Shown here: piece after piece, positions 9,350 to 31,109 of the stretch
How positions within the stretch are numbered: position 1 is the stretch's first letter
Layout of the letters: each line of letters begins with the position of its first letter
DNA from: a virus
Reading direction: 5' to 3' (one strand)
IMG/VR virus record: IMGVR_UViG_3300032893_000013
Span: 44,070 to 108,069 of that record
DNA: 64,000 bases
Notes under the pieces: generated by a model
What the model saw: the letters and a program-made list of their open reading frames with translations, nothing else
The model's database searches: none
What the model was told of the DNA's origin: nothing
Position numbers and translations under genes: made by a program

Positions 9350-9380
9350 GGGATTCTCCTAAAAGTCTGATGCCTCAAAA

Positions 9381-9388
9381 TTAAGATT
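9381..9388 (-). promoter_or_regulatory. Candidate late-promoter element AATCTTAA
   Basis: In the gap between terL and the downstream head operon. Confidence 0.35.
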
Positions 9389-9410
9389 TCAGCATATCTT
9401 ATTGTTATCA

Positions 9411-12343: not shown

Positions 12344-13350
12344 ATCTTAGCTTTCGTTTGATCGTCTGCATCGTAAACCTTGTGGACGTACTGATGCAAT
12401 GATTTGTTGACGCTGCCGCCTTCTGCTTCGATGTCGATTTTCTTTCTGATGTCTTTCCGTATGTCCGGTATGAACTTCACACGTTCGGTGAGATGACCAT
12501 ACAGGGCCAAGGTTTCTCGGTAAAACTCTTCTGATCCGTGAACACAAATCCGCACATCATCTTTCGGATTCCATTTACTTTCATCAACCGGCAAATGCTC
12601 TTTGCCTTCTTCGATGTCATAACGTATGAACGACTTCACAAGGCCGTTGGTCGAATACTTCATCCACTGATCGTTTTGGTTATCGTAGACAAAAATCCCT
12701 TTGTTCTCGTTATATTCTGTTGGAAGGAGTGCTCTCGGAGTTCCTGGATAGTAAACATTACCAACACGCTGCTCCATATGGATGTGACCAGAAATAATTC
12801 TACGCTGGGGCAAACGACGTTGATCGACGCCTCCTGGAGCAAGGCTTTTATTTTCATAGTAAGCTCCCTCAACAGTTTGATGACAGACTAAAATTTTGTC
12901 TGCGTTTTGTTGGCAAGTTTGGACAAACTTCTCATTATCACCAATGAACGGAACCATGAAATAAGGACCGTCCACCATTCCCTTTTCAGTATCATCAACG
13001 ACATGAACGGAAGGGATGCCATCGAATACAAGGCGAACAGCATTCTTCTCGACAGAGTGTGGAGAAGAGCCGTCATGATTGCCTGCCATCAAAAATGGCT
13101 GTCGCGCAGTTCGCTGGAAAATCTCAAGCATTTTGTCACGCACAAAATATGCTGTCTCTTGGCGCACAACAGAGTGAGTATGGAAAATATCACCAAGGAA
13201 AATGATGCGATGGACAGAAGGATTTTCTTCTGCCGTCTTCGCAACTAAATCGAGTATCAGGCCCGTGTCTTCCATGTTAGACGGCATTGCGTGCAAGTCG
13301 CCGACAAAGAGAGTATAGCCATTGTTTGCAAAATCTAAATTATTGTCCAT
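12292..13350 (-). CDS. sbcD: SbcD/Mre11-like nuclease
   Basis: GDLH, GDIFH, GNHD, HQ, GHIH and YPGTP metallophosphoesterase motifs. Confidence 0.85.
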   Translation of the reverse strand: MDNNLDFANNGYTLFVGDLHAMPSNMEDTGLILDLVAKTAEENPSVHRIIFLGDIFHTHSVVRQETAYFVRDKMLEIFQRTARQPFLMAGNHDGSSPHSVEKNAVRLVFDGIPSVHVVDDTEKGMVDGPYFMVPFIGDNEKFVQTCQQNADKILVCHQTVEGAYYENKSLAPGGVDQRRLPQRRIISGHIHMEQRVGNVYYPGTPRALLPTEYNENKGIFVYDNQNDQWMKYSTNGLVKSFIRYDIEEGKEHLPVDESKWNPKDDVRICVHGSEEFYRETLALYGHLTERVKFIPDIRKDIRKKIDIEAEGGSVNKSLHQYVHKVYDADDQTKAKIWTKLQTLIPNLGNANS

Positions 13351-13678
13351 TTGAACTCAACGGAAGTGCTTCAGGTCGGCCATCGGCTGTTTTGTTTTTT
13401 CTCGGGCGCTTGTGGAACACCGGAAGTTCTTCGTGCATCAAAATGAAGGTCACGTCACCAAGTTGCAACTTTTGAGTTGCCTGCGGCAAACGCATCACAT
13501 CCGCACGGAAATACAAAATATCGCCCTTCTTAAAGCGTTCGGAGTCGAACAAAACTTCTGTCTCGATCAATTTCGTGACCGTCACGTCAGTCAAGTCAAG
13601 ACCTTTCACGCGCTGACGTTCTTCGGTGTCTTTTTTGAACGGCGCAACGGCGACCTGCTTATTCATCGTTTCCATCAA
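13340..13678 (-). CDS. Divergent GroES-like co-chaperonin
   Basis: Aligns by eye to Cpn10: N.QVAV.P, mobile-loop-like KGLDLT, EVL, KKGDILYF, DVTFILMHE. Confidence 0.55.
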   Translation of the reverse strand: MMETMNKQVAVAPFKKDTEERQRVKGLDLTDVTVTKLIETEVLFDSERFKKGDILYFRADVMRLPQATQKLQLGDVTFILMHEELPVFHKRPRKNKTADGRPEALPLSSNGQ

Positions 13679-14675
13679 TTTTGATCCCTTTCAATCGTAA
13701 AACTTTTCTTTCAATCAAGGATAATACACCAAAACTTTTCTGAAGTACATCCAAAGTGTCATCGTCCTCAACGGCCTGGTATCCGTCCATGCCATCAGTC
13801 GGGGCTACGAACGTATCTACCAGTCGGGTGTCGGAGTCTTCCGAAATGGTATCATCAAGCGATGAGTAGGAAGTGGCGGCGAGTAAATCATTCACTTCTT
13901 CTTCAGCGATGTCCAAAGCCTGAGCCACATCTCTGTTTTGCATATTCGGATTTTTTTGTAACATTTTCCGAATCTGATAGAGTTTTTTCTTGGCGTGTTC
14001 ACCAACCGTAGCAGATGAAATGGTCGATCCGTTGCTTATGAGATTGCTGATGATTCTTCCAATAGCCATAGCGTGGAAGCTGGAGGCTTCTTCGTCCATC
14101 ACATATTTGTCCACAGCCACAACAAGTGCTTCATTGGCAAGTTGGATCAAGTCCTCAAACTCAGACGCTCCAGCGGCCCAAGACTTCTTGAAAATTCCAG
14201 CTTTATGAAGCGAAAGGTACAAATGCTTGTTGATGATTTCTTCGCGCAATTCCTTGATCTCTGAGAAAAGTTTACTCAAAGTCTCGCGGAACGTCGGCTT
14301 CTTGTCTTTCTTCTCTTCCTTGCCCTCAAGACACTGGATGGCAAAAAGGCAGAATCGGTAATTTATCGGGACCGGATACATGAGCTTTGGCTGAACGTCT
14401 CGTATAGCCTTGTTCACCGTGTCGAGGTACGAATCCTGCCGAGCGCGGAAATATGACTTGGCAACTTTGATGCCGCCCTGCGACCGGGAAATTTTCTGAA
14501 TGAATTCCAGATATACCTTGCGGCCCGCCGCCGTAGATTGTAACTTTTTCGCAAAAAGCTGTTCGCGCTCATAGAGTCTTCCGAAAACTTCCAGGATGTC
14601 CTCATCCGAAAGATTCTTGAGGGCACCGTTGATGTCCTCCAGGTAGACTTTTACGAGATCCGCGAATTCGTTCAT
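13659..14675 (-). CDS. Sigma-70 family factor lacking region 4.2
   Basis: Region 2 EDLIQLANEALVVAVDKY...SF, region 3 HTH, region 3.2 SLDDTISEDSD, region 4.1 LSLIERKVLRLKG, then stop. Confidence 0.82.
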   Translation of the reverse strand: MNEFADLVKVYLEDINGALKNLSDEDILEVFGRLYEREQLFAKKLQSTAAGRKVYLEFIQKISRSQGGIKVAKSYFRARQDSYLDTVNKAIRDVQPKLMYPVPINYRFCLFAIQCLEGKEEKKDKKPTFRETLSKLFSEIKELREEIINKHLYLSLHKAGIFKKSWAAGASEFEDLIQLANEALVVAVDKYVMDEEASSFHAMAIGRIISNLISNGSTISSATVGEHAKKKLYQIRKMLQKNPNMQNRDVAQALDIAEEEVNDLLAATSYSSLDDTISEDSDTRLVDTFVAPTDGMDGYQAVEDDDTLDVLQKSFGVLSLIERKVLRLKGIKIDGNDE

Positions 14676-16114
14676 GTTCTGTATTCCAAAATTTGGACCG
14701 GCCCAACTTCTTTGAGCAGCTTGATCCTGGCATTACCATGCCTCTTGAGCATAGGGACGTTGTTGACACGGAAATCAACCAGCTTACACTCAGTCTTTCC
14801 GGTTTCTTTGTCGATGCGAGTGCTCCTGCCTATGACGCCTTGCTTGAATTTCGTTTCTGCCTTGCCGCCCTGCCAATTTATGGTGAGACGAACGGGCTTG
14901 AAGTTCGTGCCAGTTGATACAGCCGAAGTTCCAACGACGCACATAATCTTGCCAGCGTTGAAGTCTTGACAAATCTGGTCCGTGTCGGCGCCGCCGCGTG
15001 CGTAGGCATAGACGGGACCGATTCGATTGCGGAGCGCCAGTTCTTGTTCGTGCTCATCAATCAGAATCAGCGTCGGAAGACCTTGAGCTAGAGCGTCGGG
15101 AACCATCTGAGCAATGATGTCAAGGATGAAGTTGTTGCGATAAAAGTGGCTTTGATTCATCTTCACGGTGTTGTTACTGTTGGTGTACGCCGAATATGAA
15201 GGAACGTCGAACACGAGGGTATTGAGCTTTGCCAGATAGCCCTTTTCTTGACCTTCTTGAATCGTCATCGAATAAACGTTCTTGCCAATAATTCCCTCAA
15301 GCAAAAGATCCTTGCCATCATTTCGTTCCTGAGTCGCAGAGAGAAACCAGCGGTACGGGCAGTGCCCGAGAACACTGTGGCAAAAATAGTTAAATTGATT
15401 TGCGGGAAGCGTGTGTGATTCATCGCTGATGAAAACTTGGTACTTCTTGAATTTGTCGAGCTTTTCTTCATCTTTCACGAGAGCCAAGCTCTTGCCGACA
15501 CAAACGAGTATGTCCTTGCCAATTTCTTTTTTGCTTCCGCCAAACATGCCGACTTTGCGCTTGCCGAAATACCGACACAAGTCGTTGTACATTGACTTTG
15601 CCAAGCCAATCGTAGGAGTAGAGATGATCGTCGGCAGTCCCGTTGCCTTCACCAGCAAAACAGCGATGTGACTTTTCCCAAGTCCAGTCGCAATTTCGAC
15701 GTGCGAATGCGGACTGTTCAGCATTCCCTCTACCGCTTTGTCTTGATAGTCATAGGGATCAAAGTCTGGAATACGATCCCACGGAATCAACTGAAAGTCC
15801 GGGTAGTAAACTTGATTTTCAAATTCGACCTGAAACTCTCGTTGCAATCGAGACAAAACTCCGGGCAGCGTGTAATAGCCCTCTTCATCTTCGTAGAGAA
15901 GAGACTTGTACAGTTCTTCCTCCAGATCGGCAAGCATCTCGTGGAAGCGTTCTTTGCCGTACTGCTTGATGTAAAATGGATTTTTCTTCAGGCGACGGAT
16001 TTTCTCATCTACCGTAGCGTCTCGGTACTTCAGAACATTCTGAAGAGTCATGACTTCAGCTTCAGAAGCGTTTTGGATTCTAAGTTTTACTGGCGTTTGA
16101 AGAATCAGTTTCAT
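14672..16114 (-). CDS. SF2 helicase (UvsW-like)
   Basis: YDYQ, ATGLGKS, DESH, SAT and Q..GR motifs. Confidence 0.88.
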   Translation of the reverse strand: MKLILQTPVKLRIQNASEAEVMTLQNVLKYRDATVDEKIRRLKKNPFYIKQYGKERFHEMLADLEEELYKSLLYEDEEGYYTLPGVLSRLQREFQVEFENQVYYPDFQLIPWDRIPDFDPYDYQDKAVEGMLNSPHSHVEIATGLGKSHIAVLLVKATGLPTIISTPTIGLAKSMYNDLCRYFGKRKVGMFGGSKKEIGKDILVCVGKSLALVKDEEKLDKFKKYQVFISDESHTLPANQFNYFCHSVLGHCPYRWFLSATQERNDGKDLLLEGIIGKNVYSMTIQEGQEKGYLAKLNTLVFDVPSYSAYTNSNNTVKMNQSHFYRNNFILDIIAQMVPDALAQGLPTLILIDEHEQELALRNRIGPVYAYARGGADTDQICQDFNAGKIMCVVGTSAVSTGTNFKPVRLTINWQGGKAETKFKQGVIGRSTRIDKETGKTECKLVDFRVNNVPMLKRHGNARIKLLKEVGPVQILEYRT

Positions 16115-16301
16115 TTTCAGGTTCCCAAAAGTGGTCGGAAAATTTTTGTCCGGCGACAGAATATTCCGCTCGTGGAGGAATCATGCCTGCCTCTTGAATT
16201 GCTTTCAGAATTTCATTAGGCCAATGGTCACTCAATAAAACGACATCATCCATCTGAAGCAAAACGTCTTTGATTTTTTTCAGCATTTCACTTCGCTTCA
16301 T
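16080..16301 (-). CDS. Small EAGMxPP-family protein
   Basis: Paralog of 58388..58618. Confidence 0.55.
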   Translation of the reverse strand: MKRSEMLKKIKDVLLQMDDVVLLSDHWPNEILKAIQEAGMIPPRAEYSVAGQKFSDHFWEPENETDSSNASKT

Positions 16302-16433
16302 CGAGACGTGACTCTCATCAAAAAAAGAAGGCCGAGGAGTATTGCAACTTCGGCGATTACTGGATTGGCTGATAGCAAAAAGTACGCCTGCCAGAGAAGA
16401 TGTCTAATTTTCATGGGATAGCCTCTGTTGCCC

Positions 16434-16462
16434 ATACTAGCGTCTCAAAATGGGATTGTCAA
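16434..16462 (-). promoter_or_regulatory. Leftward sigma70-like promoter
   Basis: TTGACA-N17-TAGTAT on the minus strand. Confidence 0.65.
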
Positions 16463-16473
16463 GCGGAAATCAA

Positions 16474-16502
16474 TTGACCTGTGTACTTTTTTGGGACATA
16501 CT
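16474..16502 (+). promoter_or_regulatory. Rightward sigma70-like promoter
   Basis: TTGACC-N17-CATACT; ATG 6 nt downstream. Confidence 0.65.
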
Positions 16503-16508
16503 CAGGCA

Positions 16509-17411
16509 ATGTCGGCAAAAAAGCAGTTTGAAAAACTTCCATACCACATCCTGTTGAACCCCGATCTTTCGCCAGAATCCAAGCTACTCTTCCTGATCCT
16601 TAAGAAATATAAAGGCTTTGGGAAGGCGTTTGCCAAGATTGACACACTCGCGGAGCGTCTCAACTGCTCCAGGAACTGCATTGGATCATACGTCGATGAG
16701 CTTGTAAAGGCAAAGCTCCTGACTTACAAAAAAGGCGGCTTCAAAAAGGCCAATGAATACGAGCCTGACATGAATCCGGCGACGCGCTATGCCATGGTTT
16801 CCGTTGATTTTCTTCAAAGTAAAAATTTTACATCAACTGAAAAAATTATACTGATCTACCTGAAGGAGCGGGCCGGTCTTGAATTCGGCTACAGGCAGAT
16901 GTCAAAGGACCTTGGACTTAGCCCCAAAACCTTCCAGCGGTTTTTCTCCGGCGACAAATGGCACCGATTCTTCGTGAGAAACGTCGGCCAGGGAAAGAAC
17001 AAAAGTACATACACACTCACGAAAGAGGGGCATTCAATCTCGGAAGGGGGTATGGACATTTTTGACGATGGTATGGACAAAACCGTGTCTCTACCTGTGG
17101 ACAAAACTGTGCAAGGGGTATGGACAAATCTGACAGGGGGTATGGACAAAACCATGTCACCAATCAGACTTAATAAAAACAGACTTAGGAAATCAGACTT
17201 AAACATTCAAGTCTTTTCTATTCAGACATGGAATTGCAGTTGTGGATGCAAGACAGAAGACGAACATAAAAAATTCCAAGAAAAAATTAAAGCCGACTTC
17301 GATAGAGAAATTTCTCGTCCTCCCAAAAAGACTATCCTCTCAGAACAACAAGAAGAAATGGCAAAAAAAATCAAAGAGTGGGAACAAACAGGCTTCTTTC
17401 CCAAAAAATAG
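16509..17411 (+). CDS. Replication initiator-like protein with tandem winged HTH and internal iterons
   Basis: Two related HTH blocks (LSPESKLL...TLAERLNCS; FTSTEKII...QMSKDLGLS); GMDK repeats; lambda O-like layout. Confidence 0.75.
   Translation: MSAKKQFEKLPYHILLNPDLSPESKLLFLILKKYKGFGKAFAKIDTLAERLNCSRNCIGSYVDELVKAKLLTYKKGGFKKANEYEPDMNPATRYAMVSVDFLQSKNFTSTEKIILIYLKERAGLEFGYRQMSKDLGLSPKTFQRFFSGDKWHRFFVRNVGQGKNKSTYTLTKEGHSISEGGMDIFDDGMDKTVSLPVDKTVQGVWTNLTGGMDKTMSPIRLNKNRLRKSDLNIQVFSIQTWNCSCGCKTEDEHKKFQEKIKADFDREISRPPKKTILSEQQEEMAKKIKEWEQTGFFPKK
17046..17201. repeat. Putative replication origin: 5 iterons plus 3 AT-rich CAGACTTA repeats
   Basis: TGGACA cores at 17053, 17074, 17098, 17121 and 17143; CAGACTTA at 17165, 17180 and 17194. 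Confidence 0.75.
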
Positions 17412-17459
17412 TTGCTTCAAGGACCTTCAAATTGGGATATTAACCTTGTAGGAGCTACT

Positions 17460-17663
17460 ATGGATTTGTTTACCCTTACGGAATTGAAAACTATTCACTC
17501 AGCACTCTGCCTGAGAGAAGCAACTCTTCTTCAGATCGCCGACACTGAACACACTGAAGTTCCACCGGAACAGAGATTTTTTGTTCCGCAACTTCGACAG
17601 GTTCGTCTTTTGAAAGAAAAAGTTGCATCTGAAATTCGCGTTTCCCTGAGAACGGAAGGATAA
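17460..17663 (+). CDS. Hypothetical protein
   Basis: SD AGGAG before ATG 17460. Confidence 0.55.
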   Translation: MDLFTLTELKTIHSALCLREATLLQIADTEHTEVPPEQRFFVPQLRQVRLLKEKVASEIRVSLRTEG

Positions 17664-17666
17664 AAA

Positions 17667-19493
17667 ATGTACAGAGAACTTGTCAAAGCAAAGACAGCCG
17701 CAAAGAAAATTACCTACGGTGGAGGCGGCGGCGGAAACTCCGACGATCTCAAAACTGTAGTTTTAGACACTGTAAGGAAAGCCAGCCAGTTGGTGGGCAG
17801 TACCCTTGGACCTAATGGGCGCGTGGTTTTAATCGAAAGGCAAGAGAGCCTTCCCCCTTTTACAACGAAGGATGGGATCACCGTTTTCAATTCCATGGCG
17901 TTTGCTAACCCAACTGCGCAGGCTGTTTTAGAAGCTGCGCGGGATAGTAGTAGCAAAACGAACGTAGAGGCGGGAGATGGGACCACTACGGCTACTATCC
18001 TTGCGGAAGCTCTTATCCGCTTAGGTTTTGAATACCTTGAAAAAAATCCAAAGTTGAGCGTTCAGAAGGTCATGCGCGAAATGGAAAGAACTTTCCGCGA
18101 CCTTGTGGTTCCCGCGATCAAAAGTTTGTCAGTAAAGATTACAGAGCAAAACAGCGACGATCTACTTCGTAAAGTGGCTATGGTAGCGACGAATAACGAT
18201 GAGGAGATGTCAGATGCAGTCATTAGAGCTTTTGGAACTGTTGGGCACGGTGGAAACATTACCATCGACGAAGGCCCAGGAGCATCGGGATACCAAGTCG
18301 AAAAGATTGAAGGTCTTCCTATCGCCCGTGGATTTGAAGATTCGTGCGGTCGCTTTTTTGAAGAGTTCATCAATGACAAAGCCAATTATCGTGTCATTCT
18401 CGAAAAACCGCATTTCATTCTCTACAACGGAAAGCTCAACGAACCTTCTGCCTTGATTCCGATTCTTCAGAAAGTGGCGACTGCGACCGGCTTGACCGGC
18501 GAAGAGATCCGCGCCTCAAAATTTTCCCCGAATATCATCGTTGTGGCGCACCATTTCTCAGAAGCCGTACTCGCGTTCATGATGAATAACTTCAAGAATG
18601 CCGAGGCTTTGAATCTTTTTCCTCTTAAGACTCCGCTTACACAACAAACGAACAGTCCATTTCATTTTTTACACGATCTATCGGCGTTTACCGGCGCGAT
18701 TGTTTTCGATCCGGTGAGCAGACCGCTCGAAAGTGCAGAACTTGAGGATCTAGGTGTAGATGAGATGCGTCTGTTCGAGTCTTATCGCTACAAATCCCTC
18801 CTTTTAGGAGAACCGCCAGAACCTATCCTGATTGCCCGAGTCGAAGAACTTGAGCAACAGGCTAAACAGCCGGAAAGTGAGCTTGATGGCGAAATTATTC
18901 GTGAGCGCATGTCCCTTTTGACGGGAGGCGTTGCCCGAGTGCGCGTTCTTGGCTCATCTGAGTCCGAACTGAAGGAAAAGAAACACCGCGTTGAAGATGC
19001 GGTCATGGCAATCAAAGGCGCGCTCAAAGAAGGAGTGTTGCCCGGATGTTGCAAAACTCTTCTCGTCCTTTCGTCAGCCATCGCTCAAAATCCGACAACA
19101 TCCGACGCCGTGAAACAAATCATGGCTCGCGCCTTGGCCGAACCGTTCAGTAGAATTTTCACAAATGGTGGAGCTACTACCGATGAAATCCAAGCGATCT
19201 ATGCAAAAATGATGGATGTAAAAAATCCTTTCTTTTACACATACGACGCTTTGAGCGGAAAAACCGGCGATGCCATCGAGTTGGGAATCGTTGACTCTGC
19301 ATCCGCCGTCCTGATGGCAATTAAAAACAGCCTGGCGGTCGCTAAGATGCTTATGGGACTGTCTGGCATTGTTGTGTTCCAACGCGATCTCGAAACGGAA
19401 ATTGACGCCTCTAGGACGTTCAAAGCGGAAAATCAGGCAATGGCCGAAGCGATCCGCGACTCTAACCAAGAACATTGGGAACCGCCAATTTGA
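17667..19493 (+). CDS. groEL: Phage chaperonin GroEL (Cpn60)
   Basis: TLGPNG, TKDGITV, AGDGTTTAT, GGVA and RVEDA motifs; no GGM tail. Confidence 0.93.
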   Translation: MYRELVKAKTAAKKITYGGGGGGNSDDLKTVVLDTVRKASQLVGSTLGPNGRVVLIERQESLPPFTTKDGITVFNSMAFANPTAQAVLEAARDSSSKTNVEAGDGTTTATILAEALIRLGFEYLEKNPKLSVQKVMREMERTFRDLVVPAIKSLSVKITEQNSDDLLRKVAMVATNNDEEMSDAVIRAFGTVGHGGNITIDEGPGASGYQVEKIEGLPIARGFEDSCGRFFEEFINDKANYRVILEKPHFILYNGKLNEPSALIPILQKVATATGLTGEEIRASKFSPNIIVVAHHFSEAVLAFMMNNFKNAEALNLFPLKTPLTQQTNSPFHFLHDLSAFTGAIVFDPVSRPLESAELEDLGVDEMRLFESYRYKSLLLGEPPEPILIARVEELEQQAKQPESELDGEIIRERMSLLTGGVARVRVLGSSESELKEKKHRVEDAVMAIKGALKEGVLPGCCKTLLVLSSAIAQNPTTSDAVKQIMARALAEPFSRIFTNGGATTDEIQAIYAKMMDVKNPFFYTYDALSGKTGDAIELGIVDSASAVLMAIKNSLAVAKMLMGLSGIVVFQRDLETEIDASRTFKAENQAMAEAIRDSNQEHWEPPI

Positions 19494-19501
19494 GGTAGAC
19501 C

Positions 19502-21907
19502 ATGATTGTGCTGTATAAATGTAATCTTTGCTCAAATTCGATCAAGAAATATTACTCGCAGGGGCAGAAACAAGCTCCGTTCATTCAGTGCGAGTGCAAA
19601 GGTGTCATGGAAAAACAATTACCCGAATTCAGCACGTCTAGCTTTGAAACCGTAGACAATGGTAACATGGTGAAGAAAGTGGAACTTCGTAAGGGCGCGG
19701 TCGAAAAGGCACGCGCAAAGGGCGATGACTTCATCCAAAAAATGGAAGATCGCAATAGGGTAATAAGAATGAGACTTGATCTTGCGTCACTAAACATCAG
19801 CGCGCTCAAGAATTTCGCCGCCAATCAGCATGTGGACTTACCTTCCTATGGCGTAACCGCAATTGTTGGGAAGAATGAAGATGATGGCGGAAGCAACGGA
19901 ACCGGCAAATCATCCTTCTCGATTGCCGCACTCGTCAATCTTTTTGGACCAAAATACGTCGGGGCCTCGATTAAGGATCTTGAAAACCGCTACCTGAAAG
20001 ATTCAGCCAGAGTCGTTGGCCGATACTATCTTGACGGTAAAGAGCTTCTGGTTGACAGAACGCTTGGCGGACGCCTGTGGTTCATGTTCGATGGTAAGCC
20101 GAACCGTGATGGCAAAGCCGAAGAAGTTCAAGTTCAGTTGAATCAAATCTTGGGCATCACTCCAGAACAATTGGATTTTTTGAGCAACAAATCTCAAGGG
20201 CAATTCGGCGGATTCCTTCTCATGAAGGACGCGGATAAAAAGGACTTCTTGAGTTCTTTCTTCGATGTGACGGACATCGAAAAAGCCAAAGATAAAGCCG
20301 ATCTCGAACTTTCCGTCAAAACCAAAGAATTGAATGCTGCAACTGGCAAACTTCAATATGTCGAGGGCGAAGTCAAGCGTCTGGCCGATCTCGTCAATTC
20401 CGCAAAAATTGAAGTTGAGCGCGTCAACACAAGCGACTTCCGCAAGACCATTGACGCAATGAAACTTCAGCTTTCTGACCTTGAAGCGAACAAATCTGCC
20501 CTAGAATCTCTCAAGAACAAAAGCGAATCTGAATTTGCAGAATATGCCATGGCCATAGCCGAAGTTAAATCGGCCTATGAGGCTTCCATGCTGAAGCGGG
20601 CCAACATTGAAGCCCAAATCGCCGAGCAAAATGCCAGAATGGAAGAGACGAAGCTCAAGATCGAAGAGCTTAACCTGAAAATTTACAATACGCCATCGAC
20701 GCCAAAAGAATTGCTGGATCAAAAGGCTCAGATAGAAGCCGTCATCGCTGAGTTGAATCGTCGCAAAAATAGCGTCGCTCAACAGCAATACGCTCATTCC
20801 TTGTCCTTGCAGCGCCTTGTGAATTTGCAGACTTCTCTGGAACAGGCCGAGAATGCGAAATGCTCCTACTGTGAATCTCCATTGAGTGACGAAAAGAAGG
20901 CGGCAACTAAGGCTAAAATTCAAGCTGACATAGACGCTACCAGAGCTTCGGACAGTCTGATCCTGGAAAAGATTGCTGCCGAAACTGTCAACGAAGATGA
21001 TGTCAAACAGGCACAGGTCTTCAAAGACACTATCCTTCAAAAAATTGCAGACTTTTCTGCGGCTAACAATCCGGAAACCTTCAAAAGAGAATCAGCATTA
21101 GTGCGCGAGACTCAAAAGGTCATCACGTCTACAATCCTTCAGCTTCGTATGGCTCTTGATATGGAATCTGGAGCCGTAAAGCAAGCTATTCAGAAAGTTC
21201 GTGACGGAATCAACAGCGCGCTAACCAAAATCAATTACGACATCTACAATGCGCAGCTTGGAATTCAGGCAAAAGAAGCTGAAATCGCTGACAAGCTCAA
21301 AGAATTGAGTCGCGCCGAAGCCGAACATAAACGAGTCTGTGAAGAATTCGCTCAAGTTTTTCGCTCGAAGGAAGCTCTTGATGAGGAAGTCACTACTCTA
21401 ACGCACGTCACCAAAGTCACGTCGAAGGCTGGATTCATCGGTTACATTTTTGACAGTATGCTTGAGAATTTCAACTCCGAAATCAATGAAAATCTCAAGA
21501 TGATTCCGAACGCCAGAAAGTTCAGCCTTCAATTCTCATCAGACAGGTTGGTAAAAACTACAGGTGCTGTCAACAAGGCAATCACGTACCAAATCTTCAG
21601 CGGAACGGAGAAAGTAGATTTTGAGACTTTATCTGGCGGTGAAAAACTCAGCGTGATCGCTGCGGTAGATGAATCTCTTGATACGGTCCTGAGTAAACGT
21701 CTTGGCGTATCTATTGGATGGAAATTCTTGGACGAACAATTCTACTGGATTGATGAAAACAGCAAGGAGTCCATCTTGAATTTCTACAAAGCCAAGTCAA
21801 GCAAGAGAGCCTATTTCATCGTAGATCACGCATCTGAATTCAATGCTGCGTTTGACAGTAAAATCACCATCGTTCGCTCAAACAATGTGGCGCGGTTTGC
21901 GTCATGA
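19502..21907 (+). CDS. sbcC: SbcC/Rad50 ATPase with N-terminal zinc-ribbon extension
   Basis: SNGTGKSS, coiled coil, CSYC zinc hook, LSGGE, FLDE and VDH; N-terminal CNLC...CEC. Confidence 0.88.
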   Translation: MIVLYKCNLCSNSIKKYYSQGQKQAPFIQCECKGVMEKQLPEFSTSSFETVDNGNMVKKVELRKGAVEKARAKGDDFIQKMEDRNRVIRMRLDLASLNISALKNFAANQHVDLPSYGVTAIVGKNEDDGGSNGTGKSSFSIAALVNLFGPKYVGASIKDLENRYLKDSARVVGRYYLDGKELLVDRTLGGRLWFMFDGKPNRDGKAEEVQVQLNQILGITPEQLDFLSNKSQGQFGGFLLMKDADKKDFLSSFFDVTDIEKAKDKADLELSVKTKELNAATGKLQYVEGEVKRLADLVNSAKIEVERVNTSDFRKTIDAMKLQLSDLEANKSALESLKNKSESEFAEYAMAIAEVKSAYEASMLKRANIEAQIAEQNARMEETKLKIEELNLKIYNTPSTPKELLDQKAQIEAVIAELNRRKNSVAQQQYAHSLSLQRLVNLQTSLEQAENAKCSYCESPLSDEKKAATKAKIQADIDATRASDSLILEKIAAETVNEDDVKQAQVFKDTILQKIADFSAANNPETFKRESALVRETQKVITSTILQLRMALDMESGAVKQAIQKVRDGINSALTKINYDIYNAQLGIQAKEAEIADKLKELSRAEAEHKRVCEEFAQVFRSKEALDEEVTTLTHVTKVTSKAGFIGYIFDSMLENFNSEINENLKMIPNARKFSLQFSSDRLVKTTGAVNKAITYQIFSGTEKVDFETLSGGEKLSVIAAVDESLDTVLSKRLGVSIGWKFLDEQFYWIDENSKESILNFYKAKSSKRAYFIVDHASEFNAAFDSKITIVRSNNVARFAS

Positions 21908-22281
21908 TAAAGGCCGATCTGGAATCAGCGTTGGCCCTATGGGACGCTCTTGAGGAAGAGGCGGAAATCTACGTCCCAGTCGTTCTCGACAGCACCAGCA
22001 ACGGGAAATTTTTCGTTGAGCGCGGAACACTACCGGCTAATAAAGATCGAATGCTGGTGAGAGTGTTCGTAAACAGAGACGAAGCCGATTCATATAAACT
22101 TTTCAAGAAGGGCAATCGCCTCACTCTTGCCACAACGACGGTAGGACACCTTCTCGCTTCACTCGAAAGAAACTTGACAACTATTGACGGTAAAATAGAA
22201 TGTGTGCTATCTACTTTGGATATGAATGGAAATTTCCACATCCTCGAAACTTTGTGGTCGAACACTAACCGAAACTCATAG
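21904..22281 (+). CDS. Hypothetical protein
   Basis: Coupled ORF. Confidence 0.55.
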   Translation: MIKADLESALALWDALEEEAEIYVPVVLDSTSNGKFFVERGTLPANKDRMLVRVFVNRDEADSYKLFKKGNRLTLATTTVGHLLASLERNLTTIDGKIECVLSTLDMNGNFHILETLWSNTNRNS

Positions 22282-22289
22282 GAGAAAAA

Positions 22290-22577
22290 ATGGACGCACG
22301 CGAACTTGATGAAAAGATTCAGGACTTGAAAGATAAGTTGGACGAAAATTTTGTTAAGGAAGTTAAGGCTTCTAGTCCAGAAGCTCTCAAAGAAAAAATC
22401 GTTCAATTGTCGAAAAGAGTTCAGGAAATTGATGACGAGAAGGCTAAAGACGGCAAACTGAAAACTCTTCGCACCCAAAAGTCTGACCTTGAGGGCGGAT
22501 ACCGGGATCGCAAGAAAGAAGTGGATCGTCAGCGTCAATACGTTATGCTCACTTTGATGGAGCGCGGTAATCTATAA
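22290..22577 (+). CDS. Small coiled-coil protein
   Basis: SD AGGAG. Confidence 0.6.
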   Translation: MDARELDEKIQDLKDKLDENFVKEVKASSPEALKEKIVQLSKRVQEIDDEKAKDGKLKTLRTQKSDLEGGYRDRKKEVDRQRQYVMLTLMERGNL

Positions 22578-22921
22578 TGTCCGAACAGCCCGCAGAAAAG
22601 CCTAAGAAGAAACGTAAGCGCAAGCCGAAACCTTCTGGGCTGAGAAAATATTGGCCACATCTTACGCTCAAACAAGCCGAAGCGGAACGGCAAAAACTGT
22701 CAGATGCTCAAGGAGCCAAATGTGCCATATGCGGGAAGGACGAATCTTCGTTCGTTAACCGATTAGCGGTCGATCATAACCATGCGACCGGGAAAGTACG
22801 CGGACTTCTGTGTTATCGCTGCAACAAGTTCCTGGTTGGAAGAAACACTATTGAGTCGGCCACAAAAATCTTGAATTACTTACAGACCTATGATATACCA
22901 GCCGCTCAGGAGGAAACATGA
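22577..22921 (+). CDS. Recombination endonuclease VII
   Basis: CAIC...VDHNH.TGKVRGLLC..CN. Confidence 0.88.
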   Translation: MSEQPAEKPKKKRKRKPKPSGLRKYWPHLTLKQAEAERQKLSDAQGAKCAICGKDESSFVNRLAVDHNHATGKVRGLLCYRCNKFLVGRNTIESATKILNYLQTYDIPAAQEET

Positions 22922-23430
22922 AAGTTAGAGTACAAAAATTGAATCCCGAAGCTGTGATTCCTAAATACGCCAAGCCTGGCGATGCCGGTCTTGATCTCGT
23001 GGCAGTCTCTGTTGAGGTTGACGCAAATCTTAGGCAGGTGACGTATGGAACTGGTCTTGCGGTAGAAATTCCGCAAGGGTTTGTTGGATTGATCTTCCCG
23101 CGCTCTTCGATCCGCAACAACACTCTGTCTCTCTCAAATGCGGTAGGAGTGATTGATAGCGGCTATCGCGGTGAAATCAAAGCCGTTTTCAACATAGTTG
23201 ACGGCAGAACTACAACGCAGAAAGAAACGCGCCCTTTCTGGGATGATTCTGGATCTTTTGAAGGCTACCGGGACAAGCATTTGAAGGTTCCGATAGAAAA
23301 AATTTATGGCGTCGGCGACAAAATCGCCCAACTTATGATCGTTCCATATCCTCAAATCGAATTGGTTCAGGCCGAGTCTCTTTCTGAGACAGAGCGCGGA
23401 GCCGGTGGATTTGGCAGTACCGGAAGATAG
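22918..23430 (+). CDS. dut: Trimeric dUTPase
   Basis: AGLDL, RSS, GVIDSGYRGE, IAQL and RGAGGFGSTG. Confidence 0.95.
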   Translation: MKVRVQKLNPEAVIPKYAKPGDAGLDLVAVSVEVDANLRQVTYGTGLAVEIPQGFVGLIFPRSSIRNNTLSLSNAVGVIDSGYRGEIKAVFNIVDGRTTTQKETRPFWDDSGSFEGYRDKHLKVPIEKIYGVGDKIAQLMIVPYPQIELVQAESLSETERGAGGFGSTGR

Positions 23431-23431
23431 G

Positions 23432-23460
23432 TTGATTTTCTCAAAAAGATACGGTAAGAT
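23432..23460 (+). promoter_or_regulatory. Sigma70-like promoter
   Basis: TTGATT-N17-TAAGAT. Confidence 0.45.
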
Positions 23461-23486
23461 CGTATCAATTTGAGCTAGGAGTAAGT

Positions 23487-24389
23487 ATGTACGACTTTGA
23501 CGAAGAAGCTGGCGAGTACGATGGTAACGCCGAAGAGGTTCTCGAAAACCTCGAAGATGGACTTCCTGCTGATTTTCAGAATGGGGAAGAGTACGCCGCC
23601 GATGTCATGAACAGCGCCATGCAGCGTATTGAAGAGGCGAATCTGTTCAAGACTCTTGTCAATCAAGACATCTTCGCTCCGAACTCTGCACGTCCGGAAA
23701 TTCTAAACTCTGTCAACGCAAAGATCCGACAATTTGCGATTGAGCAGCTTGAGACTCTTCTCGGCATACGCTCACCCAAGTCACAAAGCGCCGACCTTCC
23801 GTTTGATGATGGAGAAGTCGCCCAACTGAAAATGCTTCTCGGCAACTTCTCTGAAGTAGAAGTTCGCGTTTTGAAAATGCTCATTGGGAAAGTCCTGAAG
23901 ACGGATTCAAACTTCGTCGCTCAAAGTACGCCAGAACGTAAACCGGAACTTCAGCAAATCCAAGCTCCGACTCCGGTCGTGAAGCAAATTGGAACCCCGG
24001 CTCAACCGCTTAAAAAGGCCCAACCCAAAAGACAGCCTGCGCGCCAAACTCAGCCGCATCCAACTCCGGCTCAGCCTGCACCTGGACAAAAGCGCAAACG
24101 TCAAAAGCCAGGAACTGCAACGCCCAATACCACTACCAAAGTGAAGCCAATGCCGAGCGCAGAGCAGCTTATCCCGGTATTGGGAGCAGCTAATCAGGGA
24201 GTCGTTGCCTCACGCGCAACGAAGGGATCTCAAGGCGTTTCTGAAGGTGAAATGAATAGAGGTATAATGTCAGTCGGCGATGTCGTTCAAAGATTGACTG
24301 GTGGAAATATCATTGCTACTGACAATTCAAATCCGGCAGATGCCGCAATGGCAGATGGTGGAGGGGTAGATGTCAACGGTAGATTCTAA
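23487..24389 (+). CDS. Hypothetical protein (acidic N-term, Pro/Gln linker)
   Basis: SD AGGAG; 300 aa. Confidence 0.6.
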   Translation: MYDFDEEAGEYDGNAEEVLENLEDGLPADFQNGEEYAADVMNSAMQRIEEANLFKTLVNQDIFAPNSARPEILNSVNAKIRQFAIEQLETLLGIRSPKSQSADLPFDDGEVAQLKMLLGNFSEVEVRVLKMLIGKVLKTDSNFVAQSTPERKPELQQIQAPTPVVKQIGTPAQPLKKAQPKRQPARQTQPHPTPAQPAPGQKRKRQKPGTATPNTTTKVKPMPSAEQLIPVLGAANQGVVASRATKGSQGVSEGEMNRGIMSVGDVVQRLTGGNIIATDNSNPADAAMADGGGVDVNGRF

Positions 24390-25038
24390 TAAGGAGAAAA
24401 AAGTGGAAACTAATACTCAACAACCGAAAACTCCGGCTCCCGCTCCGGCACCAAAAGCCCCTGCAAAGCCGCAAGAACCTCAAAAAGTGAAAAGCTACAC
24501 CGAACGCTTCGTGGACATGGAAAACATGATTGTTCGCATGAGCTACGCCATCAACTTTCAGGCCAAAACCATCGAAGAGTTGATGAAGCAAATTCAGGTC
24601 ATGAATGAAGAGCTTGATCGCTTGACTCTTGTTCGCAAGAGCGTCAATGCCATCATGAAAATTTCCGAAACCGAAGAAACCAGCACCCATATGTTCTCAC
24701 TGGAAAGAGTTGCTGAAAAAGTTGAGCAGCTTGAACTCCAGGCCGCTAAAGAACAACTTGCTAAAGACCTTCAAGATGGCGTTGTAAAACAAGCCGATAC
24801 CGTCGAAAATGACCTTACGGTTATTGAATTCGAGTCAATTCCCGAAGGCTCCTACGGCCTTATCAGCGTCGGAACCACAGTTCCCGAACTGAAAAAGGAA
24901 TTGATTGGAAAGAAAGTCGGAGATGTTGTGCAAAAGGTGAAGATTACCGGCATCTACGCATACGTCCTCGAAACACCCAAAACCGAAGGTACAGATGGCA
25001 AAACTCAAGAAAACCCCCAAAGTCCAGCAGCGCAGTAA
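24370..25038 (+). CDS. Coiled-coil protein with GreA-C/FKBP-like C-terminus
   Basis: ELIGKKVGD motif after a long coiled coil. Confidence 0.4.
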   Translation: MSTVDSNKEKKVETNTQQPKTPAPAPAPKAPAKPQEPQKVKSYTERFVDMENMIVRMSYAINFQAKTIEELMKQIQVMNEELDRLTLVRKSVNAIMKISETEETSTHMFSLERVAEKVEQLELQAAKEQLAKDLQDGVVKQADTVENDLTVIEFESIPEGSYGLISVGTTVPELKKELIGKKVGDVVQKVKITGIYAYVLETPKTEGTDGKTQENPQSPAAQ

Positions 25039-26647
25039 AGAAGAGGAACGAGAAGAGCGTCGGAAACAACTTGCAGAAACTTACGCAAACCTTGTAGATG
25101 ACGGGATCTTTTTCCCGTCTCGCGCCGATCTCCGAACTCAAGGCGTCACTGTTGATACTGTTCGACACCATTTTGGAACTCTGTCAAAGCTTCGACAAAC
25201 CGCGAAAACTCTGTTTCCAGAGTCTTTCACCGGCAGCATCAATCTTGAAGAATACCTGTCAGAAAAAAATCTGAAAAGAATTCACAAGAGCATTAAGTCT
25301 CACAAGAGATTCGTCATTACGACAGCCGTTGCAGGACAACCCCTTCATGATGGATTTTTGAACTCCATCCGTCGCTATTGCGACATGAACAAAGCCAAGT
25401 TGCTGATCCTTCCGTCGCACGATCCGGCTCACAATCTGGACAATGAGATTGATTGGCACTTCGATCCTCGAATCATTGAGGAAGACATCATCTTTGAAGA
25501 GACTCAGCTAAACTCAAATCTGTTCATCAGCGAGATTCGCGTTACCGCCAAACAGATCAACCCCGTCACCGGACTGTCTGAAATTTCTCAAAATAAAGGC
25601 AGTTTCATCTTCGCTTCTCCCAAACAAAGCCTTGAGTTTGACGCTGTGTCGGCTAACAAGCTCCCGCACGCTCGTATGAGCACCGGGGCCATTACGATGC
25701 CAAACTACAAAACGACACGAGGAAATAGCCTGCGCACGGGCTATTTGGCAACTTTTCAACACGTAATGGGCGCCTTAATCGTTGAAGTGAAGGACGAGAA
25801 CATCTATCATTTCCGTCAAATCCAGATGGGCAAAGACGGCTCATTTTGTGACCTTGGAAAAGAATACTCACCTACTGGTGTCCGGAAAGTGACTCCAAAA
25901 TTGGTCATGGGCGATTACCACGCTGGCGAGCATGACGATACAGCCGTAGGCGCTTGGATTGAGATGATTCGAGCCATGGAAATCGAAGAAGTCATGTTCC
26001 ACGATATGTTCAATGGCGTATCGGTGAACCCCCACGAAGAAGATGACATCATCCTCAAGACTGAGCGTGCGGCCCTTGGATTGAACAGTATCGAAACCGA
26101 AATGAAGATTACCTCATCTGAGTTTGATCGAATCTTAGGTCAGCCCAGCGTGAAGCGGGGAGTGGTCATTAAGTCGAATCACGATGACTTCATTGACCGC
26201 TGGCTCCGCAAAGGAAAATTTGCAAAAGATCCAATCAACTTCAAGTTCGGCTGTAGATTGGCCGTGGAAGTCGTTGGAACGAAAAAAGATTTCTTCAACG
26301 AAGGTCTGAAACTCGTCGGCGTGCCTAAGCATTACGGTAAGTTGAAATGGCTGAGCGTTGATGAAGATTATGTGATTGGCGGCATCAATTGTGGCGCCCA
26401 CGGAGATCGCGGAGCAAACGGTGCTCGTGGCGGTATCAGAGGATTGGCAAAAGCCTATCCGAAATGCGTCGTAGGCCATTCACATACGCCTGGAATCTAT
26501 CGTGGAGTCTTCCAGGTAGGAACGACCAGCAAGTTGCGTCTGGGATACAACAAAGGCCCGTCATCGTGGGTTCATTGTTCGTGTCTTGTGTATGACAATG
26601 GTCAGCGTCAGTTGATTAACTCAATCGGCGGACAGTGGCATCTGTAA
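24995..26647 (+). CDS. HTH plus calcineurin-like metallophosphoesterase
   Basis: RHHFGT HTH; GDYH, HD, SNHD, HGD and GHSH motifs. Confidence 0.75.
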   Translation: MAKLKKTPKVQQRSKEEEREERRKQLAETYANLVDDGIFFPSRADLRTQGVTVDTVRHHFGTLSKLRQTAKTLFPESFTGSINLEEYLSEKNLKRIHKSIKSHKRFVITTAVAGQPLHDGFLNSIRRYCDMNKAKLLILPSHDPAHNLDNEIDWHFDPRIIEEDIIFEETQLNSNLFISEIRVTAKQINPVTGLSEISQNKGSFIFASPKQSLEFDAVSANKLPHARMSTGAITMPNYKTTRGNSLRTGYLATFQHVMGALIVEVKDENIYHFRQIQMGKDGSFCDLGKEYSPTGVRKVTPKLVMGDYHAGEHDDTAVGAWIEMIRAMEIEEVMFHDMFNGVSVNPHEEDDIILKTERAALGLNSIETEMKITSSEFDRILGQPSVKRGVVIKSNHDDFIDRWLRKGKFAKDPINFKFGCRLAVEVVGTKKDFFNEGLKLVGVPKHYGKLKWLSVDEDYVIGGINCGAHGDRGANGARGGIRGLAKAYPKCVVGHSHTPGIYRGVFQVGTTSKLRLGYNKGPSSWVHCSCLVYDNGQRQLINSIGGQWHL

Positions 26648-26654
26648 ATCGTAG

Positions 26655-27005
26655 ATGAAGCGAATAAAAGGCCACGGTTGGGGCCATGCGATGAAAAAAC
26701 ACAATAGGCACCATCAAAGACGCAGCGGTGATGAGTCTGAGGAAAACCTACGGGGAAGACTCAGAGAAGCCGAAAAAGCACTTGAAAGGGAACGGCGCTA
26801 TAGTCGCTCCTTGGAAAAGAGACTCGCCCAAAAGCGAGATGTGAAAGAAAGAACTGAACATGAGCCGAAGCCCGAACCGATACTGGATTGTCCAAACTGC
26901 GGTAAGGGGCGCTTGATTGAGCAAAAAATTTACAGCCCTACGAAGGAAATCATCTGGGCTGTCTGTAACAATGAGGCGTGCAAACACCGTGAAAGAAGAA
27001 AATGA
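26655..27005 (+). CDS. Coiled-coil plus zinc-ribbon protein
   Basis: CPNC...CNNEAC. Confidence 0.6.
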   Translation: MKRIKGHGWGHAMKKHNRHHQRRSGDESEENLRGRLREAEKALERERRYSRSLEKRLAQKRDVKERTEHEPKPEPILDCPNCGKGRLIEQKIYSPTKEIIWAVCNNEACKHRERRK

Positions 27006-27008
27006 CAA

Positions 27009-27410
27009 ATGTCTTGGCTACCAACCGACGTGGAATATCGCATCAAGGTCATCGAGAAAGAGATCGAGAGAGCTTATGCGCAGATCCCCGTCTTTGAACT
27101 TGGCATAAGAGAGGAACAGAAAGACCTGGACCTTCAATGGATTTATCGTCAGACTTTGATAGAAGCGATTGCCTTTCTCAAAGCTCAAGGCCCCACGGCA
27201 GTTTCTCTTTCCGAATACAAGAATATACTGGTAGACTTAGCCATAACCGACCAGACGATCACTCAAAAGCAAACGGCCATCACGAACATAACCAAGGCTT
27301 TAGGTGAGAAAAAACGAGAGATTGAGCACATGAAGAACAGCATAGTAAGACTTACAATGACCAACAGGCGAGGCGTACTGCTCGACTTTAGGAAGAAAAA
27401 TGAGCGTTGA
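27009..27410 (+). CDS. Coiled-coil hypothetical protein
   Basis: ORF in operon. Confidence 0.55.
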   Translation: MSWLPTDVEYRIKVIEKEIERAYAQIPVFELGIREEQKDLDLQWIYRQTLIEAIAFLKAQGPTAVSLSEYKNILVDLAITDQTITQKQTAITNITKALGEKKREIEHMKNSIVRLTMTNRRGVLLDFRKKNER

Positions 27411-27621
27411 GAAAGAAGAAGTCAAATCTCGTGTCTTGAGTGAGCCGGACTTCATCAACTCCAAGAAGTACCGCTACAGCCTAGACCGATACCTCAAGAA
27501 CAATCCTACGTCGCCGGACAACATCATCGCACACCTTTTGTGCATGAGCGAAGAAGATGTGAAAAAAGTATTCGAGGGTGCCGTCGTAAAGATTAGACAG
27601 TTCATGAAGGTTGAGGTATAG
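27400..27621 (+). CDS. Stand-alone sigma region-4-like HTH protein
   Basis: DNIIAHLLCMSEEDVKKVFEGAVVKIRQ resembles sigma4.2 consensus EEIA..LG.S.E.V.QI...AL.KLR. Confidence 0.55.
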   Translation: MSVEKEEVKSRVLSEPDFINSKKYRYSLDRYLKNNPTSPDNIIAHLLCMSEEDVKKVFEGAVVKIRQFMKVEV

Positions 27622-30600: not shown

Positions 30601-31109
30601 ACTCAGACAATGTGAAAAATTTAGCCATGCCCAAGCTGTCCGCTCAAGGAAAGGCGACACAAGTTGGCGCTTCAGGCGTGTTCATGTACAACTCGAATCC
30701 GCGCCGCTCCATCGTCTCTGTAAAAATGTTAGAAAAGTTGATCGACAGCACTGAAGTTTGCAAGATCGCCGTCATAGGATATGTTGTTGACACCGAAACC
30801 AAGTTGTTTCATAATAACACCAAGTCTCGCCTGATTGCCTCTATTGAAGTTGAGAACAAAGTTTTTGATTTCATCAAGTGGCCCGATTGGGGATCATCCC
30901 ATCACGGAGTAGATCAAGACATTACCGAAAGCGTTTGCGTGTTTTTATTGTCGCGCAGACGGCCAGGAGATGATCTTTTCATTGATGGAATAGACGTTTT
31001 AGAAAACCTCGACTTCTTAAAGGAGAAGACAGATGGAAGTACCGACACTGGCAAGCCTAAAGGCAGAGCTAAAGCAGCTAAAAGAACTTCTGGCGATAAA
31101 TCTACATAA
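27630..31109 (+). CDS. dnaE: DNA polymerase III alpha subunit with PHP domain
   Basis: HNH..S.D, TDHG, DAHY, GPGRGSAAG, DIDTDF, RHAAG, KYDILG, YQEQIM and FNKSHA. Confidence 0.96.
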   Translation: MCTDRQIVGPHNHPLSLDSGNSVKQFIRAAAKDFGRSAIAITDHGTLGAIIEAHDYTKELKKKENLDIKIIPGVELYLLPGSDDDSGESYYHVTVHFNDFDSYLDACKLSKPSFERAIWKGAEFKPLTTWEELETLSGKVTLFSSCLVGAVLRPWLKNRKDISERNFVRLMRIAGAGRYFGEIFPYEVSKNWNSQKKIFEQIAPSECSATGQLQVDANRWIIHLCQKYNIPMVISEDAHYAHEEDKFIQDARLNKDGKSTWKMSDANCLHNSEWLYKELKRIHPEFMNEKVFNEMVDNSYRFLENFKGFDPKFKPALPKVFVERLNSQGQIVKEEPKSDDELTQWVLGLVVKKGRINLADPIYAARLNKEIHQLAYNGKVNILPYMLTLNTIVDFCEANDILIGPGRGSAAGCLLAYALGITSVDPIKEDLSFERFFDVTRVEEGLADIDTDFSDREAVVAFIKQHWGDNFAFLGIGTTFKTKSALKDIDRFINGEVRKETEDVCKTIGLTPQGVEEEKFLNGYNDADGVYHEGELERNEKLRAFLEVNPQIKENMFKMVGIVRQMGRHAAGVLIADRPVHSFIPIMKISDEPTTQLLPKWVEKCGGVKYDILGVSTLNDIRLCLKFIKQRTGKVIDPWKIEDSQDFWEACANEPSTVFQLHTDTVRPGLQTMRPKSVQQAAILTSVYRPGAMDAPSDEDPTKMMSTIFLERWTGQRPVNYVHPELEPILSPTKGIIVYQEQIMRIVHELGGLTMPETNKLRKAISKKAGDDLLNMLARVKENLTKRGWTEKQAQTTVDQMKASGRYCFNKSHAVSYCYIARACAYLKYHYPMEWWTAVLSNASKDDLQAYWQRVSKLTLPPDINNSTELFQIVQRDGSERILSPLTLIEGVGAAVMTEILRARPFNSLEDMMTKVSRRIVNKGPMIKLIISGTLDAFFPAEAKDYEKIQIYLNKKAELEGKGSPESVPMEYIETTPLKNFLLKKSVFKVYSDNVKNLAMPKLSAQGKATQVGASGVFMYNSNPRRSIVSVKMLEKLIDSTEVCKIAVIGYVVDTETKLFHNNTKSRLIASIEVENKVFDFIKWPDWGSSHHGVDQDITESVCVFLLSRRRPGDDLFIDGIDVLENLDFLKEKTDGSTDTGKPKGRAKAAKRTSGDKST

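Follow-up and report, generated by a model that had tools for sequence, protein, structure and literature searches.

A phage sigma factor ending inside domain 4 and a free-standing region 4-like protein: a possible two-piece sigma in Mx1-like phages

Results

The window analysed here, a stretch of 64,000 nucleotides (nt) corresponding to bases 44070-108069 of the 108-kb IMG/VR virus record IMGVR_UViG_3300032893_000013 (~67% complete by estimate), carries a gene for a sigma-70-family factor of 338 amino acids (aa) without the region 4.2 helix-turn-helix (HTH) and, on the opposite arm, a gene for a 73-aa protein with a sigma-type HTH (Table 1). A previous description of this DNA, made from its letters and open reading frames (ORFs) without database searches (hereafter the sequence-only reading), had taken the small protein for the missing HTH and had suggested that the phage builds its late holoenzyme from both pieces. 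Our analysis indicates that the sigma ends at the same point throughout a phage clade in which the small gene is also a core gene, and it points tentatively to an action of both products on one host polymerase. Note that, at the DNA level, a comparison of the window with known phages gave no match.

Table 1. Positions in the window of the two genes, their parts and the surrounding features
Feature	Position	Strand	Basis
Sigma-70-family factor, 338 aa, without the region 4.2 HTH	13659-14675	(-)	ORF, PHROG, Pfam, hhalign, Foldseek
Region 2, core binding and -10 recognition (residues ~144-216)	14028-14246	(-)	RpoS alignment; weak Sigma70_r2
Region 3 HTH (residues ~223-288)	13812-14009	(-)	Pfam Sigma70_r3 at 239-288
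Region 4.1 remnant, two helices up to the invariant L-x-L-K-G (residues ~298-330)	13686-13784	(-)	AlphaFold 2 model, alignment
Variable 8-residue tail and TAA; site where region 4.2 would come next	13659-13685	(-)	Sequence
Free-standing 73-aa sigma-type HTH protein (region 4.2-like), clade core gene	27400-27621	(+)	ORF, HMMER family, Pfam r4 in relatives
HTH proper of the small protein (residues 39-69), aligned with sigma region 4.2	27514-27606	(+)	hhalign, FliA 201-238 and RpoS 286-317
DNA polymerase III alpha, dnaE	27630-31109	(+)	ORF; Pol III alpha annotated at the matching position in Mx1
Three conserved genes preceding the small gene, for a phosphoesterase-like (550 aa), a Zn-ribbon-like (116 aa) and a coiled-coil (133 aa) protein	24995-27410	(+)	Gene order shared by 8 related records
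Beta-rich protein of ~108 aa, perhaps Cpn10-like, whose gene runs over the sigma stop	13340-13675	(-)	Position; weak Atlas lead
Divergent intergenic region, from which the sigma arm runs leftward and the replication arm rightward	16302-16427	.	ORF map
Promoter-like motif, one of seven copies	about 9378-9413	(-)	ATCA and TTAG blocks, then AAATCTTAAT

The 338-aa protein matched phrog_351, the general sigma family, in the PHROG scan (E 5e-16), as well as Pfam Sigma70_r3 (E 3.6e-4), for which the scores of the relatives G004 and G001 exceed the curated cut-off (31.8 and 27.6 bits, respectively); the match to Pfam Sigma70_r2 was weak (residues 170-210, E 0.08). Using a family profile of 45 sequences, hhalign aligned residues 144-327 of the phage sigma colinearly with residues 91-275 of Escherichia coli RpoS (probability 94%, E 1.8e-7), a stretch which runs from region 2 to the second helix of region 4.1. 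Past this stretch, RpoS has 55 further residues including its 4.2 HTH (about 286-317), and the phage sigma has 11; since the latter is aligned up to RpoS 275, its end corresponds to the point where the RpoS 4.2 HTH would start. The AlphaFold 2 (AF2) model of the sigma (predicted local distance difference test, pLDDT, 73) matched the sigma70/sigmaA (group-1) chains of holoenzyme structures with a Foldseek probability of 1.0, and its last two helices span residues 298-316 and 320-328. The sequence-only reading, which had seen a sigma with regions 2, 3 and 4.1 stopping where 4.2 should begin, is thus borne out by RpoS colinearity, Pfam and Foldseek.

Among the 45 sequences, D175, Q178, N181, D189 and K190 of region 2 are invariant, and a DLIQ-ANE-VDKY block is conserved. 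Region 4.1 is likewise present, as indicated by the RpoS alignment and by the two C-terminal helices with their E-x-K-x-L-x-L-K-G motif. Positions L318, K324, L326, L328 and G330 (counted on the window's protein) are invariant; beyond G330, the alignment displays no conservation. The C-terminus of the ORF reads ...ERKVLRLKGIKIDGNDE and is followed by a TAA stop, the whole translation closing with ...LRLKGIKIDGNDE. The invariant hydrophobic and charged positions suggest that the 4.1 remnant still belongs to a unit that is folded or bound.

This end point is shared by the whole family. Indeed, the protein search returned 46 sigma homologues with 36-79% identity, almost all of them 321-351 aa long, the two outliers in length being P0023, with 240 aa and 71% query coverage, and P0047, which reaches 422 aa through an in-frame fusion to the downstream beta-rich protein. 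At 17 loci from viral contigs and in the cultured Myxococcus phage Mx1, with identities down to ~25%, as in the homologues of 321-351 aa, all sigmas end 2-12 residues past L-x-L-K/R-G, and no full-length relative was found among the homologues and loci examined. Searched with Pfam Sigma70_r4, the six frames of the whole 108-kb record gave no match at E<=10, and in the six-frame search of 23 related phage records no sigma ORF contained this domain. The statements that the sigma has no continuation in other frames and that the next gene overlaps its stop (with an ATG at 13666 or 13675) hold accordingly. A lesion, a frameshift or an assembly error of the window's contig has the unusual end point in its favour and nothing else, and there is practically no chance that it explains the stop: more than 60 independent sequences, one of them from the complete genome of the isolate Mx1, end at the identical point, which rules it out, and no HTH is encoded in any frame downstream of the sigma stop.

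The 73-aa ORF lies exactly where it had been placed, just before dnaE, from which it is separated by 8 nt, and its first 11 nt are shared with the end of the coiled-coil ORF ahead of it. While a word-based search yielded seven close relatives only, an exhaustive HMMER search with the profile of these seven relatives retrieved, at E<=1e-3, at least 264 cluster representatives, almost all of which are free-standing proteins of 64-105 aa. Their signature is an N-terminal D-P-D-F-I-x-S-x-K-x-x-N-S-L followed by an HTH ending in K-L-R. Longer proteins containing the small domain were inspected as well, and their extra parts are of low complexity or unrelated, with no sigma among them (P0066, P0109, P0188, P0190 and P0193), or are a tandem-repeat artefact (P0129).

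The window's small protein gave no match in single-sequence Pfam or PHROG scans. Among 58 diverse members of its family, Pfam Sigma70_r4 was matched by 8 (best E 8.5e-6), the PhyR sigma-like domain by 2, GerE by 2, and r4_2 and r3 by 1 each. In the six-frame Pfam searches of the 23 related records, the r3 model found sigma ORFs only and the r4 model found three small ORFs (profile positions 13-50; 12-17 bits, under the 24.1-bit cut-off), the small protein being the sole r4-like ORF in these records. In addition, hhalign placed the small-family profile on the 4.2 region of FliA (residues 201-238; E 2.7e-4, probability 41%) and, more weakly, on RpoS 286-317, just beyond the RpoS point where the phage sigma ends; against PDB sequences, the profile weakly matched the C-terminal domain of NarL and the final ~37 residues of sigmas (profile positions 34-70). 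The AF2 model of the small protein comprises five helices (pLDDT 76), of which residues 37-70 superpose on classical and homeodomain HTHs with a root-mean-square deviation of 1.2-1.5 Å over 32-34 residues, and the ~38 additional N-terminal residues include a counterpart of the second 4.1 helix. The only conserved basic residues of the family are K64 and R66, and its median isoelectric point is 5.8. Judged from its sequence family, the small protein is a sigma-type HTH protein, the likeness of which to region 4.2 is better than chance at the family level.

Both genes occur in 8/8 genomes that are complete or at least 90% complete (G001, G004, G007, G009, G010, G015, G017 and Mx1), and the opposite arms that had been noted for the window recur in every one of them. 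Similarly, all 8 records with a sigma-family member also carry the small gene, and a ninth record, without it, is a 13%-complete fragment with a different, RpoD-like sigma. When records were collected via a distant subgroup of the small protein, the sigma was present in 10 of 15. None of the four records with a completeness of at least 90% lacked it, and the five that did are 30-65% complete fragments. Mx1 carries both genes: the sigma (WNM70309.1) is annotated in the published genome and the small ORF is unannotated. The latter lies at 157473-157679 (-) of OR576727.2 (L046:5001-5207), flanked by a hypothetical gene and the gene for DNA polymerase III alpha.

A k-mer scan of the intergenic DNA identified a motif of ~32 nt with seven copies in the window's genome (G000; sites 5384, 12095, 14418, 22392, 29852, 31532 and 53456), which consists of an ATCA block, 5 nt, a TTAG block, 5 nt and AAATCTTAAT. 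All seven copies are on the gene strand, upstream of gene starts in the leftward packaging/head arm; the same motif has 14 gene-strand copies in G001 and is present in G004. G007 keeps the core only (ACAATCTTT; 15/18 sites at most 40 nt upstream of same-strand starts), as does G010 (CAATCTTC), and no conserved upstream block was found beside the motifs of these two genomes, though both keep both genes. Enrichment and strand bias of the AATCTT core were observed in G000, G001, G004, G007, G015, G017 and Mx1, and in G010 the core is over-represented upstream of genes; CAATCTT is strongly strand-biased and over-represented in G015, G017 and Mx1. Since distant genomes keep AATCTT only, the clade-wide constant is one -10-like element. 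The -10 elements of sigma-70 type follow an A(-11) and T(-7) rule, which AATCTT fits, and we infer that it is a candidate -10 element and that the motifs would be promoters read by the phage sigma.

The upstream blocks of G000, G001 and G004 lie about 6-24 nt ahead of the AATCTT core, that is, at about -36 to -18 if AATCTT is assumed to be -12 to -7. It appears from these motifs that the blocks of the window's subclade need a reader other than the sigma, but the blocks are not universal and the small protein is. Under a strict version of the split, the small protein would be a true -35-reading 4.2 that reads these blocks, and late transcription would need both arms, as in an AND gate. The conserved blocks, a sigma without a 4.2 to read them and the tiling of the two proteins on the RpoS ruler speak for it. 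We nevertheless consider this version unlikely, since most family members have Glu/Asp at the equivalents of the DNA-contacting arginines of sigma70 4.2 (positions 51-53, the start of the recognition helix; Glu/Asp in 45-83% of the 58 members), G007 and G010 have both genes yet no upstream conservation, and the position numbering is itself an assumption; as for the AND gate, both genes are near the divergent start region. Because the small family is acidic to neutral and the G007 and G010 motifs have no upstream block, a role like that of gp33, the beta-flap-binding co-activator of T4 late transcription, is favoured over -35 reading.

The neighbourhoods of both genes are conserved. The small gene follows the phosphoesterase-like/Zn-ribbon-like/coiled-coil block in 8/8 records examined, and it is directly before dnaE in six of these and one gene apart in two (L011 and L016). 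The 550-aa phosphoesterase-like protein matched phrog_1745 (E 7e-103). The two small conserved genes ahead of the HTH gene in all relatives (26655-27410 (+) in the window) encode a basic Zn-ribbon-like protein with a C-terminal CxxC...CxxC and the coiled-coil protein. On the other arm, the sigma gene has a helicase before it and the beta-rich gene and an SbcD-like phosphoesterase after it as constant neighbours, and it heads an arm that continues with terminase, portal and protease genes. A good TTGACA-N17-TAGTAT match of sigma-70 type, pointing leftward, is located at 16462-16434 (-), within the beginning of the first rightward ORF (16428-17411).

The beta-rich gene, in another frame than the sigma, is always directly downstream of it and usually overlaps its stop; its product has no HTH. 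No Pfam match was obtained for this product and its profile search against PDB was likewise empty, while its nearest Atlas cluster has Cpn10 in 12% of the members, a weak lead. In one sublineage (L004:2968-4272 (+) and P0047), the sigma ORF runs into the beta-rich gene, forming a fusion of 422-434 aa with an internal Met at the junction. The phage also encodes a Cpn60/GroEL-type chaperonin at 17667-19493 (+) (Pfam Cpn60_TCP1, E 2.4e-42). One could therefore see in this adjacent, translationally coupled protein, and not in the distant HTH protein, the functional partner of the sigma, as its invariable position and the in-frame fusion in two diverged sequences would have it. However, with a Cpn60-type chaperonin in the phage and the Cpn10 lead, a co-chaperonin role is simpler, and the protein has no HTH or sigma likeness, which makes a partnership with the sigma highly improbable.

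Discussion

We propose, with a probability of roughly 40%, that the 338-aa protein is a functional sigma lacking region 4.2 by design, encoded by a core gene of the Mx1-like clade, and that it acts together with the 73-aa protein on one host polymerase in a manner resembling T4 gp55/gp33, the small protein replacing the missing half of domain 4. The sigma would use regions 2, 3 and 4.1 to bind the host core RNA polymerase and would steer it to the phage late (packaging and head) promoters, in which the AATCTT core close to gene starts would be the only clade-wide element. The 73-aa protein, as a detached sigma-4-type domain, would be produced from the replication arm along with DnaE and would most likely act in trans on the same polymerase, as a gp33-type surrogate at the beta-flap or the 4.1 remnant rather than as a -35 module of the classical kind that reads the sequence. 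That it binds RNA polymerase or the sigma, and its exact role there, we infer.

We favour this proposal because the truncation is conserved from 79% to ~25% identity, Mx1 included, because the small protein is the only r4-containing ORF in the 23 records and both genes are core, and because the small-family profile falls on the 4.2 of FliA and RpoS, just past the point where the sigma ends. It is also favoured because split sigmas have precedents and because no phage RNA polymerase was found in the 67%-complete record of the window, in a search of which the T7-type half is weak, its control having matched nowhere. More doubtful is the wider suggestion that a globally distributed Mx1-like clade makes its late holoenzyme from a sigma divided inside domain 4, with a body (regions 2, 3 and 4.1) produced from the late-gene arm and a domain-4 module encoded by an unlinked core gene that is expressed along with the replicative polymerase; this holoenzyme would be complete only when the replication operon is expressed as well.

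Several of our observations weigh against such a partnership. Structure searches with the small protein (Foldseek against PDB and BFVD; VIA) found generic HTHs only, none above noise, with all Z scores at most 3.4 and the sigma-4 rows (Z 2.3-2.7) mixed with unrelated rows. The r4 match begins within the second helix of 4.1, which means that the small protein repeats the last helix of the sigma and is no simple continuation of it. The small-family profile also matches region 3 of the phage sigma itself (residues 228-268; hhalign E 4e-6), with 15.7 bits versus 13.9 bits for FliA 4.2, and since it fits the phage region 3 equally, an origin in region 4.2 is not certain. The idea that the small ORF is the missing HTH was therefore right as regards a sigma-type HTH with r4 likeness in relatives, but not as regards a clean fit to the gap, given the overlapping 4.1 helix and the equal fit to region 3; similarly, the profile and structure comparisons that had been suggested for it gave r4 matches in relatives and the hhalign match to FliA 4.2 on the one hand, and structural matches at noise level on the other. 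The acidic residues at the start of the presumed recognition helix also count against a split sigma. As for the gene pair, no fusion of the sigma with the small protein was found among the 150 relatives listed, and the two genes are unlinked, at 12-19 kb from each other. Their co-occurrence was found as expected for partners, but it is confined to a single clade with a frozen gene order and may reflect shared descent only; joint core-gene status is needed for a partnership and is not independent evidence for one.

Another explanation, which we hold to be only slightly less likely than our proposal, is that the sigma acts alone as a -10-only factor (gp55-like, with regions 3 and 4.1 kept) and that the small HTH protein serves the replication module, the co-occurrence being due to shared core-genome descent; the small protein may then be, for instance, a regulator of the replication operon or a protein binding DNA together with the polymerase. 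The small gene is embedded in a fixed four-gene block with dnaE and is neither linked nor fused to the sigma, the promoter motifs of distant members have a single block, and the last two helices of the small protein superpose on generic HTHs, all of which such an explanation would accommodate. It is less at ease with the family profile, which fits sigma r4, PhyR and GerE models and not repressor-type HTH families, with the acidic DNA-reading face of the small protein, and with the strictly conserved two-helix half-domain on the sigma, which is hard to explain without a partner.

The alternative offered by the sequence-only reading, a flap-binding, gp33- or AsiA-like role of the small protein, fits the facts at least as well as that of a -35 reader. 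Since the clade is large and includes the culturable Mx1 (Myxococcus xanthus), the idea is directly testable, and the clade-wide AATCTT motif provides concrete candidate promoters for experiments.

Comparison with known systems

Two-subunit sigmas are known from T4 (gp55/gp33), SPO1 (gp33/gp34), Bacillus subtilis (SigO-RsoA) and Tn916 (Sig7-Sig8) (bioRxiv 10.64898/2026.10.01.756105). As in SigO-RsoA, Sig7-Sig8 and SPO1 gp33/gp34, sigma functions in the Mx1-like clade would be distributed over two polypeptides that would share one polymerase; in those systems, however, the split lies between domains 2 and 4, whereas here it lies inside domain 4, after 4.1. The genes of these three systems are adjacent. 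In the window, the two genes are 13 kb apart on opposite strands, and their pairing is putative. In the literature searched, we found no paper on the Mx1 sigma, and none on phage sigmas that lack 4.2 and have a detached partner; split sigmas as such are known, and none of those described in the papers searched is broken inside domain 4 and has an unlinked r4-like partner.

With RpoD, RpoS and FliA (groups 1-3), the phage sigma shares regions 2, 3 and 4.1, colinear with RpoS, and the sigmaA/sigma70 fold, but the region 4.2 HTH is missing in every member of the Mx1 clade. T4 AsiA is an anti-sigma that binds region 4 of sigma70 and remodels it on the flap; like AsiA, the small protein is a small helical phage protein with a possible action at the sigma-4/beta-flap site, although no similarity between them was detected and AsiA is not r4-like. 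Another phage encodes a 275-aa RpoD-like sigma (L008:292-1119 (+)) that likewise ends shortly past region 4.1. Unlike in the Mx1-like clade, its candidate partner is directly downstream and translationally coupled to it: a 96-aa ORF with an HTH-like segment (L008:1116-1406 (+)), which proved unrelated to the small family when tried as a relative (hhalign probability 0.3%).

The closest parallel would be T4 late transcription, with the minimal sigma gp55, the co-activator gp33 and the gp45 clamp. In both cases, a phage sigma has no part that reads the -35 element, a small, non-basic protein encoded separately is proposed to stand in for sigma domain 4, the promoters (candidate promoters in the Mx1 clade) are defined mainly by one short -10-like element near gene starts, and there is a link to the replication module. 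The parallel includes no clamp dependence, and no sequence or PHROG relation to T4 gp55/gp33 was found (the sigma matched phrog_351 only, the small protein no PHROG). Furthermore, the Mx1-like sigma, unlike gp55, has retained regions 3 and 4.1 and resembles RpoS/RpoD over 184 residues, and the small protein, unlike gp33, is r4-like. To our knowledge, the loss, replacement or in-trans supply of sigma domain 4 is known in detail only for T4. If our proposal is true, the Mx1-clade variant, which keeps regions 3 and 4.1 and has a free-standing r4-like protein, would be a second, unrelated solution beside that of T4, and domain-4 loss would become a recurring route to the takeover of the host polymerase.

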